DNA from: Candidatus Poribacteria bacterium | GTDB taxonomy: Bacteria; Poribacteria; WGA-4E; WGA-3G | NCBI GenBank assembly: GCA_965198235.1 | Contig: OZ240248.1 | Span: forward strand, 1,088,001 to 1,152,000 | Direction: 5' to 3' | DNA length: 64,000 nucleotides | In this document: positions 32,336 to 36,492 of the stretch, piece after piece | Position numbering within the stretch: the stretch's first letter is position 1 | How the letters are laid out: every line of letters begins with the position of its first letter | Notes under the pieces: generated by a model | Told to the model about the DNA's origin: nothing | The model's input: only the letters and a program-made list of their open reading frames with translations | Databases searched by the model: none | Translations under genes and position numbers: made by a program

Positions 32336-33631
32336 TTATCCGTTCCGAATATCCGATACTTCTTCAAAAATGACACGGTGGTAACGCTTTTTCCCGGCGC
32401 GAAGGAGTAATGCATTCTCCTCAATCATGCTAGCATCAACAGTAGTATCTATCGCACGATACTGTTTCTCGTTGATGTAGGCACCGCCTTGTTGAACGAG
32501 CCGTCGCGCCTCGCTACGTGAATTCGCCAATCCGACCTCATGGAACAACTCCATAATCGGGATGCCACTTTCAAATCGCTCGGGAGCGATAACAGAAGTG
32601 GGCATTGCTATATCATCTAGCTTACCGCCACCAAATGCGGCACGCGCCGCTGCTTGTGCTTTGTCTGCCTCCACTTTTCCATGGGCAAGTTGTGTGACTT
32701 CATAGGCGAGAATTTCTTTTGCTTCCTGAATGTTTTCGTCTTTAAGTTCCCCTAATCGCCGGATTTCCTCCATGGGAAGGAAGGTAAAACAGGCTAAGAA
32801 CCGCGCAACATCTCGGTCGTCTGTGTTAATCCAGTATTGATAGAATTCGTAAGGAGATGTCCGGTTTGCATCGATCCACACTGCACCACCTGCGGTTTTT
32901 CCCATCTTCGTCCCATTTGCGGTAGTGAGCAACGGCACTGTGACTGCGTATACCCGTTCGCCTGCGATCCGGCGGACGAGATCGACTCCAGCAAGGATAT
33001 TGCCCCACTGGTCGTCTCCGCCGAGCTGGAGGCGGCACTCGTATTTTTGAAAAAGACGCAAATAATCGTATGCCTGGATGAGTTGATAATTAAATTCAAG
33101 GAATGAGAGCCCTTGCTCGCGCTCAAGCCGCTGCCGGTAGCCTTCTGCGCGGATCATTTCATTGACTCGGAAATGTTTACCGATGTCGCGTAGAAATTCG
33201 ATATAATTTATAGAAAGTAGCCAATCGGCATTGTTAAGGAACCTGCCGGCTTTCGGGACAGTTTCCGAATTATCTGCCCTTCCTGTTCCATTATTCAGAT
33301 CTAAGTAACGTTGCAGCTGTGCAAGGATACCCTCACCGTTAGCTGCGATTTGTTCCTTTGACAACATGGAACGCATCTCGGTCTTGTCTGTCGGGTCGCC
33401 AATCATAGTTGTTCCACCACCGATAATAGCGATCGGTCTATGTCCTGCGCGCTGCAGATGTGCCATCGCCATTACAGGGACCAGATTCCCGATATGCAGA
33501 CTCGTCGCTGTCGCATCAAAACCGACGTAGCAGGTGATCTGTTTTTCCGATAACAGGTTTGCGACACGCGCTTCATCGCTACATTGTTGAATGAGACCCC
33601 GTTCCTTCAGGGTTTCAAAAACGCTTCCCAT
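32336..33631 (-). CDS. tyrS: Tyrosine--tRNA ligase
   Basis: YVGFDAT, HIGN, QLGGDDQWGNI, KMGKT and a C-terminal S4 domain. Confidence 0.97.
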   Translation of the reverse strand: MGSVFETLKERGLIQQCSDEARVANLLSEKQITCYVGFDATATSLHIGNLVPVMAMAHLQRAGHRPIAIIGGGTTMIGDPTDKTEMRSMLSKEQIAANGEGILAQLQRYLDLNNGTGRADNSETVPKAGRFLNNADWLLSINYIEFLRDIGKHFRVNEMIRAEGYRQRLEREQGLSFLEFNYQLIQAYDYLRLFQKYECRLQLGGDDQWGNILAGVDLVRRIAGERVYAVTVPLLTTANGTKMGKTAGGAVWIDANRTSPYEFYQYWINTDDRDVARFLACFTFLPMEEIRRLGELKDENIQEAKEILAYEVTQLAHGKVEADKAQAAARAAFGGGKLDDIAMPTSVIAPERFESGIPIMELFHEVGLANSRSEARRLVQQGGAYINEKQYRAIDTTVDASMIEENALLLRAGKKRYHRVIFEEVSDIRNG

Positions 33632-33642
33632 TTTTCACCCCT

Positions 33643-33682
33643 AAAAAAAATACCCAACATTGAATCATTTTCAACGTCGGGT
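33643..33682 (-). terminator. Intrinsic terminator (attenuator) immediately upstream of tyrS
   Basis: 13-bp stem acccgacgttgaa/ttcaatgttgggt followed by A and U8. Confidence 0.82.
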
Positions 33683-33735
33683 GGTGATAATTTGAACTGA
33701 TTAAAAAACCTTAAAACATCATTGTTTACAAACCT

Positions 33736-33885
33736 TCACCACCTCCCGTTGCAGTATAAATAGTAATACAGTCCGAGCGTAAAAAGGGCGTACGTGTAGG
33801 AACCACCGGAGCGTAAGTACACCTGCACGAGCCGGACGCTGCTTATTTGTACTGAAGAGAGAGTATTGTGGTAAAGTGTGTGCAT
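33736..33885 (-). CDS. Putative Tyr-rich attenuator leader peptide (49 aa)
   Basis: MHTLYHNTLSSVQISSVRLVQVYLRSGGSYTYALFTLGLYYYLYCNGRW*; 8 Tyr, including YYYLY. Confidence 0.75.
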   Translation of the reverse strand: MHTLYHNTLSSVQISSVRLVQVYLRSGGSYTYALFTLGLYYYLYCNGRW

Positions 33886-33953
33886 GTTCGATTTTTTTTC
33901 GTAGTGTAAGGCTGTGGTTAGATCGAAACCTTCCTACATTCTTTCCTAAATAT

Positions 33954-33982
33954 ATTATATCAGAAAGTGTTCGGCACATCAA
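33954..33982 (-). promoter_or_regulatory. sigma70 promoter of the leader-tyrS transcript
   Basis: TTGATG-N17-TATAAT with extended TG. Confidence 0.7.
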
Positions 33983-34086
33983 GTGTTTTCAACCAAACCG
34001 TATTGTATCATAACCCGTGGGAGCACCCGCGTAGTTGCTACAAAGAGATAAGACAGGTTCGCGCATGAAGTAGCGGTGTTTTTGTG

Positions 34087-36492
34087 TCAAAATTCATATG
34101 TAGCTCCGAAAGCGAAGTTAAAAGGGAACCGCACCGGACTTCTATACTCCGAGGTTTCCAAGTCTATGGGTAATTCTTCGGCATCTGCCTTTTTGAATTC
34201 TGTAACGAGTTTATCAGGGAAACTGAAATTAATTTTATTTTGGCTGTTATAGACATTCCAGACCTCGATGAACTCTGTTACAGGGATGCCCCATTGGGTT
34301 CTTTTGCGACTCAAGCGCAGATCTAGGGTGTGATACGCTTGAAGCGCAGCGGGCGCAATCGCACCAGCAACATCGGAGAGGGCTGGATGCATACCGAGCG
34401 TCACTGGGTCTTGAATCATCAAGAGTGTACTCAGGGGAACTGCAGAAGTACCGCTTGCATATTGCCACTTTATGCCGATATTGTTTATCGGTGTTGGGCT
34501 ATAGTTAGCGACGACACTGACGATGTGCGTATTGTCAAAGAGGAACGGTTTGTAGGCAGCATCGAGTGTCTCACGGCGTTCGGCATGCGTATAGGCGTAT
34601 GAGACCCATCCGAAAAACTTTTCGCTGATGCGGTGTCGCAAGAGTGCCTCTACGCCGTTCACATAACCTGTTCCTTGATTGAGATACGCAGTTGTAATCG
34701 GTGTATTCGTGTCATCAAAAAAGGCATCCGTGTTGACGGACCGAGTGACTAATTTTTTCAGATCTTTGTAATAAAGCGCGAGTTTGAGTTCGGTTTGTGA
34801 TGAGAGATGATGTTCTAATTCTACGACATAATGCTCGGCAATGCTCGATTTTAGGTTCTTATTTCCATCTCTGCTTAGCACCTGATATGCGAATGGGCTC
34901 TGTTCGTATCTGCCGTAGGCGAATCGGAGCTTGGAAGTTGTTGGGAGCGTGATGCTAAGGCTCCCGCGCGGTTGAATTGAGAGTTCTTCGGTCAGGTTGA
35001 GGTAATCAAATCTCACACCCAGGGCGAGCGACAGAAATGATAGCGGATCGTAGCGTGCTTGTAGGTATCCCTCGGCACGCTGGAAACCGTAGTTAAGTGT
35101 ATCGTATTTCTCTTTCCAAACGAGTTTCTCATCATCGGAACTGATGTTCTCTGGGAGAATGGTGCGTGTTGAACTTTCGGCTGGACTGAAGGCAAAGAGA
35201 AATCCCGGCTCGACTTGAAGGGTGGGTGTGAACTTATAGGACAGGTCTTCGCGAAGGGTATAGGTCGGGGCATTGACCAGGGCAGTGTAGACAAATTTCT
35301 CACTTGGGGAGCTGTCCTCTCGGCTGGAACCGCCACCGAAATTGAGATTCAGAAAATTATAGGAGTGTGTAAACGAGAGGTGGGATGTGAGTCTATCAGT
35401 AAGATGTGAGCGGAGATGGATGCCTTCTGCCTGAAACCCGTTTTTGAAATAGGCGGAAAAATTAGTGGATTCTTCTGTGTCATTAGATCCAGCACTGGAG
35501 AAGTCGAAGTGATCTGTCGCGCCTATAGCGTTAAGCGTTAGGTGATGTTTTTTGGTGAGTTGATAAGCAAATTTGAGTTGGTAATCCGACCAGCTGGGAA
35601 ATGTCCAATCAACGAAATACCTTAAAATGAGATCGATAGTCATGATACGCCCGGAGACCGATGCGTATCCTTTGTCTCCAATTTTTGCTTCAAAGAATCC
35701 AGAGGGTGCTATAAAGTTCATATCGAATACACCACCCCATTTCTTCTTCAAGTGTTCTCGGGAACGGATGTCAATAATAGCTTGTGAATCTAATCCAAAT
35801 TCCGCACCATAGCCACCGGCGTAAACGTGCATCGCCTCAATACTATCTGAATTCGTCGTTGTGAAGAGTCCACCAAAGTGAAACGGATAGCCAAGCGGGG
35901 TTCGATCGAGGTAGATGAGCGTGTCCCCTGGCGCGCTCCCGCGGATATAGAGGGCGCGAAAGAAATCGTTGGGAACACCGATGCCCGGCAGGGTCATGAG
36001 TGCTCTGAGGGCATCACGTCCGGCACCCGGAATCCGTATCATTTCGCTGCCTCGCATCACTTTACGGCTAATCGTTGGCGGAAGGCGTTGTCCTTCCACA
36101 ACCACTGTTTTGAGTTGGACAGTTGTTCCGACGTACATTTTCACCTGTGTGGTATCACCGGCTGTGACCTCTATTTTCGCAGTTGTCGGTGTCTTGGACG
36201 TTGGATGCAGAATCGACAGGGTATAGGTGCCGGGTGCGATACCGGTGAACTGAAAATTCCCGGAAGCGTCGGTTCTCGTAGACACATCGACTTCAATGCA
36301 GTGCACCTCTGCCGCAACTAAGGGTGCGTCGGTGTCATGTAAGTAGACGGTGCCTTCTATATCACCTGTGGTCGGCAAGACCAGCTGTCGGATGCTTTCG
36401 GACTTATCTTCTTTAGCAGTGTCTGTTTCGGCGAACACAGGGAACGGCATTATGAGCCCTATAAACAGGGCGGAATATAAGCAAAATTTCAT
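34087..36492 (-). CDS. TonB-dependent receptor with N-terminal carboxypeptidase-regulatory-like domain
   Basis: Signal peptide, plug motif LPG..IRG, GGYGAEFG, NVYN and C-terminal Phe. Confidence 0.85.
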   Translation of the reverse strand: MKFCLYSALFIGLIMPFPVFAETDTAKEDKSESIRQLVLPTTGDIEGTVYLHDTDAPLVAAEVHCIEVDVSTRTDASGNFQFTGIAPGTYTLSILHPTSKTPTTAKIEVTAGDTTQVKMYVGTTVQLKTVVVEGQRLPPTISRKVMRGSEMIRIPGAGRDALRALMTLPGIGVPNDFFRALYIRGSAPGDTLIYLDRTPLGYPFHFGGLFTTTNSDSIEAMHVYAGGYGAEFGLDSQAIIDIRSREHLKKKWGGVFDMNFIAPSGFFEAKIGDKGYASVSGRIMTIDLILRYFVDWTFPSWSDYQLKFAYQLTKKHHLTLNAIGATDHFDFSSAGSNDTEESTNFSAYFKNGFQAEGIHLRSHLTDRLTSHLSFTHSYNFLNLNFGGGSSREDSSPSEKFVYTALVNAPTYTLREDLSYKFTPTLQVEPGFLFAFSPAESSTRTILPENISSDDEKLVWKEKYDTLNYGFQRAEGYLQARYDPLSFLSLALGVRFDYLNLTEELSIQPRGSLSITLPTTSKLRFAYGRYEQSPFAYQVLSRDGNKNLKSSIAEHYVVELEHHLSSQTELKLALYYKDLKKLVTRSVNTDAFFDDTNTPITTAYLNQGTGYVNGVEALLRHRISEKFFGWVSYAYTHAERRETLDAAYKPFLFDNTHIVSVVANYSPTPINNIGIKWQYASGTSAVPLSTLLMIQDPVTLGMHPALSDVAGAIAPAALQAYHTLDLRLSRKRTQWGIPVTEFIEVWNVYNSQNKINFSFPDKLVTEFKKADAEELPIDLETSEYRSPVRFPFNFAFGATYEF

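Follow-up and report, generated by a model that had tools for sequence, protein, structure and literature searches.

Upstream of a gene for tyrosine--tRNA ligase (tyrS) in a Candidatus Poribacteria genome lies a leader that we regard, with good confidence, as a classical ribosome-mediated (leader-peptide) transcription attenuator, which would sense charged tRNA-Tyr and gate the second of the two tyrS copies of this genome. The leader is on the minus strand of a 64-kb stretch of contig OZ240248.1 (hereafter the window, whose positions serve as coordinates below), and tyrS copy 2 would probably be turned up when ribosomes are short of charged tRNA-Tyr. Most parts expected of a classical attenuator were found, i.e., a translatable open reading frame (ORF), a cluster of cognate codons within it, a terminator directly before the gene, and an antiterminator that excludes the terminator and that a translating ribosome would mask. 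An earlier reading made from the sequence only had proposed such a Tyr attenuator, and it is supported by the conservation of the frame within the genus and of the Tyr codons and both helices across several Poribacteria families.

Transcription would start near 33947, downstream of a sigma-70-type promoter at 33982-33954 (TTGATG at 33982-33977 and TATAAT at 33959-33954, separated by N17, with a TG preceding the -10 element and 10 of 12 consensus matches), giving a leader transcript of about 300 nucleotides (nt) with about 62 nt before the leader ORF. Two orthologous loci (L002 and L004) share both hexamers and the N17 spacing exactly, and their spacer sequences differ. An A-rich ribosome-binding region at 33902-33886, recognized from the alignment A1 described below and from the upstream strings, precedes the leader ORF at 33885-33736, which starts with ATG and has 49 codons plus UGA, eight of them for Tyr (MHTLYHNTLSSVQISSVRLVQVYLRSGGSYTYALFTLGLYYYLYCNGRW, with the C-terminal end GLYYYLYCNGRW). 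Near its end lies the Tyr cluster UAU UAC UAU UUA UAC (YYYLY, 33768-33754). The intrinsic terminator (33682-33643) consists of a 13-bp stem at 33682-33652 with five G-C pairs and a loop of 5 nt, followed by an A and by U8 at 33650-33643. An 11-nt spacer with the tyrS ribosome-binding site GGGGUG (33642-33632) then leads to the ATG of tyrS copy 2 at 33631 (ORF 33631-32336, 431 amino acids). Because the gap between U-tract and ATG is only these 11 nt, there is no room for a separate tyrS promoter, and tyrS must be transcribed through the terminator. Promoter, 49-codon ORF with eight Tyr codons, and 13-bp stem with U8 tail some 11 nt before the tyrS ATG had been named in the sequence-only reading, and each is present as described there. 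By a plain consensus scan, promoter-like sites (2 vs. 2.5 ± 1.8 in shuffles) and terminator-like sites (3 vs. 2.0 ± 1.3) were not above chance.

The coding nature of the leader ORF is seen in alignment A1, which comprises 3 tyrS leaders and 28 leaders of genes for 3-deoxy-D-arabino-heptulosonate 7-phosphate (DAHP) synthase, all from the genus of the window genome. Between the aligned ATG and the aligned UGA no leader among the 31 has its frame interrupted, one of them ending one codon early, and distinct gap runs have lengths divisible by three in 11 of 11 cases within the ORF vs. 2 of 12 past the stop. At three positions of the cluster every one of the 31 leaders has Tyr, two of these positions alternating between TAT and TAC (8/23 and 29/2), and the columns in between vary, with five or six different Leu codons, Phe, Val and Met. 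The (Leu-Tyr) run has 3 to 6 units across the genus, and large in-frame blocks have been gained or lost. Start, stop, frame and Tyr cluster are therefore kept in the orthologous tyrS leaders and the 28 paralogs alike, the conservation on which the sequence-only reading depended. The encoded peptide is hydrophobic, with a conserved N-terminal M-x-T-L-x-x-N-T and a conserved C-terminal GRW; outside the Tyr cluster it is otherwise poorly conserved in A1, and therefore as expected if the leader-peptide product itself does not matter.

The abundance of Tyr codons is likewise unusual. Tyr makes up 3.39% of the codons in the long ORFs of the genome, so that the probability of at least 8 Tyr among 49 codons is 2.3e-4, and 19 of 37,094 small ATG ORFs in the genome, including the tyrS leader and its DAHP-synthase paralog, have at least 4 Tyr within 7 codons. 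Two other Tyr-rich small ORFs were inspected and dropped, being located inside or beside unrelated genes without any terminator logic. Among 42 leaders from four families, which we tabulated for duplex, stop position and Tyr count, 39 have at least 2 Tyr in the 15 codons before the antiterminator 5' strand, where about 0.5 would be expected at 3.4%. Within the three tyrS copy-2 leaders, the cluster is YYYLY in the window and YLYLY in the other two, i.e., the window copy gained one Tyr codon.

The antiterminator is formed by two strands, referred to here as segments 2 and 3. Segment 2, the 5' strand (33751-33729), consists of C-AAC-G, GGUGGUGA, which contains the UGA stop of the leader ORF, and GGUUUG, and segment 3, the 3' strand (33694-33672), consists of CAAAUU, UCACCACC and CGUUG and doubles as the terminator 5' arm from 33682 on. 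Both RNAduplex and folding pair CAACG with CGUUG, GGUGGUGA with UCACCACC, and GGUUUG with CAAAUU. The sequence-only reading had noted the complementarity of the ORF end to UCACCACC (33687-33680), which overlaps the terminator 5' arm; that pairing exists, although its extent was underestimated, for the antiterminator occupies 12 of the 13 nt of the arm rather than just 3-4. The duplex in the window has an energy of -21.9 kcal/mol (z -4.2 against 200 shuffles), and when the two states are folded the terminator hairpin comes to -16.9 kcal/mol and the antiterminator region, folded alone, to -26.0 kcal/mol, the two helices being mutually exclusive as had been supposed.

The same arrangement recurs across the 42 leaders. 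The best duplex overlaps 10-14 nt of the terminator 5' arm in 41 of them and reaches z ≤ -2 in 34, and the ORF stop is located 13-55 nt past the start of the antiterminator 5' strand, inside it or just beyond, in all leaders except that of genome G025. In a wider family alignment of 38 leaders (A2), the terminator is 98.0% paired (28-48% in slid registers) and the 13-pair antiterminator 96.1% (30-77% in slid registers). One antiterminator pair, 268:355 of A2, is compensatory within family f1, being A-U in 19 leaders and G-C in 12. The strands themselves are GGUGGUGA:UCACCACC in family f1 and GAUGGUGGGC:GCCCAUCAUC in families f2-f4; they differ wholly between the families yet still pair, and therefore both strands changed together with complementarity kept. 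This between-family change is a stronger argument for the antiterminator than the covariation within families.

Taken together, these parts suggest the following switch. When Tyr-tRNA is plentiful, a ribosome would reach the UGA inside segment 2 (CAACG..GGUGGUGA) and mask that strand, so that the terminator stem (33682-33652) with its U8 tail would form and RNA polymerase would stop 11 nt before tyrS. When Tyr-tRNA is scarce, the ribosome would stall at the first codons of YYYLY, 14-17 nt upstream of segment 2, leaving this segment free to pair with the emerging UCACCACC..CGUUG; 12 of the 13 nt of the terminator 5' arm would thereby be taken up, and tyrS would be read through. In the absence of translation, the 5' end of the ORF may hold segment 2 and thus lead to termination. 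The candidate for this role is segment 1 (33876-33868, CUUUACCAC, codons 4-6), which pairs with GUGGUGAAG of segment 2 in minimum free energy (MFE) folds of the window. The five cluster codons begin 17, 14, 11, 8 and 5 nt upstream of CAACG, and a ribosome usually reaches about 12 nt past its A-site codon. The antiterminator would therefore stay free when a ribosome stalls at the first or second Tyr codon, and marginally at the third, and would be masked by a ribosome at the last Tyr codon or at the stop codon. Longer (Leu-Tyr)n runs would add stall sites on the upstream, productive side.

A number of observations weigh against this reading or narrow it. The last Tyr codon, 5 nt before segment 2, is so near that a stall there would mask the antiterminator, which restricts the proposed role to the first two or three Tyr codons. 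Outside the Tyr cluster, the variable columns of A1 are spread over the codon positions as 49/48/56, without an excess at the third position. As for covariation, which the sequence-only reading had put forward as a check, both helices are kept across families and one antiterminator pair is compensatory, but the 8-bp antiterminator core shows no column-wise covariation because it is too conserved, and within-family covariation is thin. A register of this core shifted by 3 nt (-3) is 93% paired as well and is compatible with the full terminator; with all segments present, the MFE fold of the window is indeed this shifted helix together with the terminator (-29.7 kcal/mol), and therefore the choice between the helices would have to be kinetic, as in the classical cases. 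The helix between segments 1 and 2 was found by RNAalifold on A1, as a long-range helix with three doubly changed pairs at the genus level, but was not recovered on the 38-sequence alignment, and its duplex energy is no better than that of shuffles (z -1.3 in the window, range -1.9 to +0.7); we leave it as possible. In one genome of family f2 (G025, locus L029), the homologous frame has Phe/His for Tyr and no stop before the terminator. Finally, the leader ORF of the window has a degenerate Shine-Dalgarno sequence, ACGA vs. the AGGA found 7-10 nt before the ATG in paralogous leaders (orthologous tyrS leaders have AAGGA in L004 and CGGA in L002), and because of this, leader translation and hence regulation may be weak in the window genome.

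RNA support comes from contigs of one study, two sponge metatranscriptome runs (X1 and X2), without true ends, strand or level, which is a further weakness. In X1, a 269-nt contig matches 33654-33922 over its whole length without differences at a depth of 14.8, and contigs on the tyrS body have depths of 4.4 and 4.2; in X2, a contig covers 33744-33935. The contigs thus begin at 33922 and 33935, and none bridges leader and tyrS in either run. X1 lacks coverage over 33296-33619 and X2 is sparse, and we give such gaps no weight as evidence. A leader-only contig matches the expectation for an abundant terminated leader RNA but counts only as a weak hint, because ends, strand and level are not resolved by contigs and DNA may have been carried over.

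The gene behind the leader is a tyrosine--tRNA ligase by TIGR00234 (9.8e-122) and Pfam tRNA-synt_1b (6.6e-85), with an intact frame and the motifs HIGN and KMGKT. Among 54 Poribacteria tyrosyl-tRNA synthetases (TyrRS) that we compared, the canonical HIGH is replaced in 54 of 54 by H-x-G-S (main copies) or H-x-G-N (copy 2; 33488-33499 in the window), and KMGKT is kept, with KMGKS in one. The housekeeping TyrRS reads HVGS at this site. The genome carries a housekeeping tyrS as well (G000:C1:1720391-1721659, G000 being the window's genome), 79% identical to the window copy, and two other genomes of the genus (G007 and G017) likewise have two tyrS genes. In a maximum-likelihood tree of the 54 TyrRS, the three extra copies form one clade (support 100/99), whose sister clade (97/86) unites all main copies of the genus, both together being supported at 100/99. 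As this copy-2 clade is old and sister to all main copies, copy 2 has been maintained.

The leader follows the distribution of copy 2. A BLAST search with the 319-nt leader against 65 genomes of the genus found the full leader only in the three genomes with copy 2; main tyrS copies have a different upstream region without a terminator, and in other genera of the family tyrS has a plain promoter and a short 5' untranslated region. In G007 (L032), similarity to the window is confined to 33994-32336, starting 12 nt before the -35 element and ending at the tyrS stop, and therefore the promoter-leader-tyrS unit has different flanks there; in G017 (L031), similarity extends upstream into a TonB-dependent receptor gene and also ends at the tyrS stop. 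It thus seems that promoter, leader and tyrS were moved or exchanged as a cassette. The housekeeping tyrS has a leader of its own (L147, G000:C1:1721660-1721960, minus strand), which is about 230 nt long and is conserved in many species of the genus. It contains two hairpins, one directly following the promoter and the other being GGUCUACAAAC..GUUUGUAGGUUUCC, and lacks a U-tract, a Tyr-rich ORF and any Rfam match. In a metagenome-assembled genome from another genus of Poribacteria (L100), a terminator hairpin like that of the window (..CCAAUGUCGAAAAUAUUUUGAUGUUGGGUAUUUUUUUU) directly follows the tyrS promoter, and the only ORF before it has 6 codons and lacks Tyr. This hairpin may be the remnant of an attenuator.

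With copy 2 and its leader in only 3 of 65 genomes, one may ask whether the element is an attenuator by descent that is now decaying in the window genome, with a weak ribosome-binding site and mostly terminated transcripts, leaving copy 2 a near-silent relic. The ACGA in place of AGGA would fit such a state, as would, weakly, the higher contig depth on the leader than on tyrS. We nevertheless consider it improbable, in view of the intact tyrS frame with its lineage-typical motifs, the intactness of all parts of the switch, the Tyr codon gained in the window copy, and the age of the copy-2 clade; moreover, an A-rich tract may support initiation without a strong Shine-Dalgarno sequence.

The tyrS leader has paralogs elsewhere. 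Most genomes of the genus contain a relative of its 3' 130 nt with 71-77% identity (some match in 54 of 65), and in the window's own genome this relative (G000:C1:3081656-3081941, i.e., L146:1157-1442, plus strand) is again a leader with a (Leu-Tyr)5 ORF, an antiterminator and a terminator. Its ORF ends in GLYLYLYLYLYSNDRW before the stop, followed by UCACCACCC and a terminator near-identical to that of tyrS, and 161 nt further on is a gene with the domains DAHP_synth_1 (1.6e-74) and a ferredoxin-like regulatory domain (5e-20). The gap between attenuator and DAHP-synthase gene (L146:1456-1601) holds three tandem units of about 38 nt (..CUUGCGAACCGAAAACUUGCUAUUAAGAAGGCGGUG..), and similar GC-rich palindromic units are found in other Poribacteria intergenic regions, e.g., L078 and L187. 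All 28 DAHP-synthase loci of the genus that were examined have the leader ORF, with 4-7 Tyr and 3-6 (Leu-Tyr) units, and in A1 the tyrS and DAHP-synthase leaders are collinear from ribosome-binding site to U-tract, i.e., they are full-length paralogs. Upstream of DAHP synthase in 20 further genomes of the phylum, leader ORF and terminator are present in 19, of which 14 come from five further genera within the family and 5 from families f3 and f4; they are absent in the sole family f5 genome sampled. The window tyrS leader (..SYTYALFTLGLYYYLYCNGRW before the stop) resembles DAHP-synthase leaders of neighbouring genera (..YLWALFTLGLYPFLYCGGRW before the stop; ..GYTYAWTLFALGVYLYLYLGRGW..) more closely than those of its own genus, in which 21 codons are inserted. 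An aromatic (Leu-Tyr)n attenuator of DAHP synthase, widespread in Poribacteria, was probably duplicated to give the tyrS leader.

In the sister family f2 (11 genomes), tyrS is single-copy and has an analogous leader in 10 of 11 genomes. After a promoter comes an ORF that starts with ATG and has 27-51 codons (..AVRYLYLLYLCCSGGL..), followed by the terminator GCCCAUCAUCGA..UCGAUGAUGGGC-U6, with a strand GUGGUGGGC at the ORF end that can pair with the terminator 5' arm. The tyrS of genome G042 (L111) has no leader. In G025, the tyrS leader (L029) keeps the helices while its frame runs through the terminator, and the DAHP-synthase leader of this genome also looks degenerate. In 10 of the 11 genomes, tyrS is followed after about 340-400 nt by DAHP synthase, and the two tyrS-DAHP-synthase intergenic regions that we read contain a promoter and a leader of the same type belonging to DAHP synthase itself. 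The f2 tyrS leader resembles the DAHP-synthase leaders of f2 and f3, and the tyrS leader of the window's genus (g1) those of f1. The pattern fits two separate recruitments of a local DAHP-synthase leader to tyrS, the alternative being exchange between paralogs.

A genome-wide search for the same antiterminator/terminator chassis returned exactly three sites, the two Tyr leaders and a leader upstream of ileS (G000:C1:1238949-1239158, i.e., L198:250-459, plus strand), with an Ile-codon ORF, the alternative pairing GUGGUGGGC/GCCCAUCAC, and a terminator. Its ORF includes the Ile run AISIIIIAI and ends in AISIIIIAIRRAVVG, the stop falling directly after GUGGUGGGC, and GCCCAUCAC opens the terminator; ileS (TIGR00392 at 4.1e-290) starts 140 nt past the leader. 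By BLAST, the ileS leader is present in 103 of 111 genomes of the family (G000 not counted) and in 0 of 47 genomes of families f2-f4, and a run of 3-5 Ile is kept in 10 of 10 loci inspected (12 were fetched, of which the pattern matched 10). The rule linking codon and gene, i.e., Ile codons before ileS and Tyr codons before tyrS and DAHP synthase, thus holds in these sequences. Between the ileS and Tyr leaders there are only short collinear matches (best E 0.002 against the 42 leaders), and because similarity is limited to these, a common origin is not established. A separate genome-wide scan for ORFs with codon runs followed by a terminator gave 23 candidates, among which only the tyrS and ileS leaders held up; a Phe-rich, a Trp-rich and a second Phe-rich candidate either had no suitable downstream gene or were in a repeat array. 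In G082 and G007 (L212 and L215), the ileS-type chassis has another paralog (GAGGUGGGC..CCCAUCACUGAA..terminator), located before a signal-peptide-protein gene and with a leader ORF (..AVLIINSMYRAEVG before the stop) that has no clear codon run.

These comparisons also bear on two readings without an attenuator. In one, the leader ORF would be the gene of a small hydrophobic protein with an unconditional terminator, and tyrS would be expressed from a weak promoter within that terminator (TTGAAA-N16-TATTTT, 33674-33647). The hydrophobic peptide with its conserved M-x-T-L-x-x-N-T and GRW ends is compatible with a protein product, and the consensus scan does list the embedded site, with 9 of 12 matches and a corresponding -35 that reads TTGACA in L004. 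Such promoter-like sites, however, are no commoner than in shuffles, and a start about 7 nt past the -10 would leave a leader of about 9 nt with at most a partial ribosome-binding site. A protein product is further at odds with a peptide that is free to vary outside the Tyr cluster, with 3-6 (LY) units and in-frame blocks that come and go, and with conserved nucleotides that are those of the pairing strands; nor would it explain why the same layout occurs with Ile codons before ileS. We judge this account to be quite improbable.

In the other, the helices would be switched without a ribosome, by uncharged tRNA in a T-box-like RNA, a ligand or an RNA-binding protein, the ORF being incidental. 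We searched 33400-34300 on both strands against Rfam at E ≤ 10, and found no T-box and no credible match to any family, which also answers the possible T-box explanation raised in the sequence-only reading; four matches at E 0.67-9.4, to eukaryotic small nucleolar RNA and microRNA models, were judged to be chance. The housekeeping tyrS, DAHP-synthase and ileS leader loci gave no credible match either (paralogous loci at E ≤ 1), and no T-box match was found at any of the Poribacteria tyrS, aroF and ileS leaders examined. Despite tyrS being a classic T-box target, the length of the leader (about 300 nt), a GGUGGU that resembles the UGGN tRNA-acceptor-binding motif, and the lack of firm support for the 1:2 helix of the classical model, a switch without a ribosome is very improbable in view of these Rfam results and of the ORF itself. 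If the ORF were incidental, one would not expect all 11 indel types to preserve the frame or three Tyr codons to be invariant with synonymous swaps, nor would the stop be expected to fall within the antiterminator strand or shortly past it in nearly all 42 leaders (G025 excepted).

The leader of tyrS copy 2 is thus one member of a larger family of leaders in Poribacteria, not described before, whose genes are those for DAHP synthase, tyrS and ileS. Somewhat more doubtfully, this may be a modular family on one antiterminator/terminator chassis that was copied and re-coded, with Tyr codons for DAHP synthase and, twice, for tyrS (copy 2 in g1 and the sole copy in f2), and with Ile codons for ileS. 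If true, it would be a ribosome-based counterpart of a T-box regulon, with its sensitivity tuned by the number of six-base Leu-Tyr repeats, and the variable (Leu-Tyr)n run indeed suggests a simple evolutionary sensitivity dial. Such Tyr and Ile attenuators would show how an uncultured candidate phylum free of T-boxes links tRNA charging to expression, and about 100 natural variants, with varied repeat number and two helix sequences, could make the rules of ribosome-mediated switching readable. For the biology of sponge symbionts, they would mark tyrosine and isoleucine supply as signals that these bacteria monitor, and the parts are compact enough that they could be tried as a tyrosine-responsive expression switch.

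Among aminoacyl-tRNA synthetase genes, pheST is the textbook case of leader-peptide attenuation, predictions exist for a few more, and the known RNA-based control of tyrS is the T-box. In the literature we found no attenuator of tyrS with a Tyr-codon leader, and none reported from Poribacteria, although supplementary tables of surveys might list predictions; the text of PMC2965389 does not mention tyrS, tyrosine, aroF, aroG or DAHP. Among the closest known systems is pheM-pheST of E. coli, where a synthetase is controlled by leader-peptide attenuation (cited in PMC11802643 and PMC1262725). Like pheM, the Poribacteria leader has a short ORF rich in cognate codons, a terminator just before the synthetase gene, and an antiterminator 5' strand overlapping the ORF end, and the logic would be the same, i.e., more synthetase when charging drops. 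Unlike pheM, with its Phe codons and a length of about 14 codons, the Poribacteria leader uses Tyr, has 49 codons in which Tyr alternates with Leu in an expanding and contracting unit, and is found in another phylum; it also would control a second, patchily kept paralog here, and the only copy in family f2.

A counterpart of the Poribacteria DAHP-synthase leader is the aroR-aroF attenuator of C. glutamicum (Neshat et al., 2014), in which, according to the review PMC11802643, the leader peptide AroR contains Phe-Tyr-Phe and the response is to Phe, not Tyr. Both would control DAHP synthase by stalling on an aromatic-codon leader peptide; the Poribacteria leaders, however, carry 2-7 Tyr and have no sequence relation to it, and no such element is reported for the tyrS of C. 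glutamicum. Candidate classical attenuators of trpS and leuS have been described in Streptomyces (Seliverstov et al., 2005, PMC1262725), which, like ours, are comparative-genomics predictions of synthetase attenuation outside Proteobacteria, but for other amino acids and in another phylum; in the same paper, tyrosine control is known via T-boxes, and conserved RNA structures are not found for tyrosine genes in Actinobacteria. With the tyrS T-box of B. subtilis, the Poribacteria leader would share the target gene, the terminator/antiterminator output, and the signal of Tyr-tRNA charging, but its sensor would be a ribosome on an ORF instead of a directly bound tRNA, in line with the lack of an Rfam T-box match. 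The mechanism would thus be that of pheM-pheST, and what appears to be new is the pairing of amino acid and gene, and the phylum in which it occurs.

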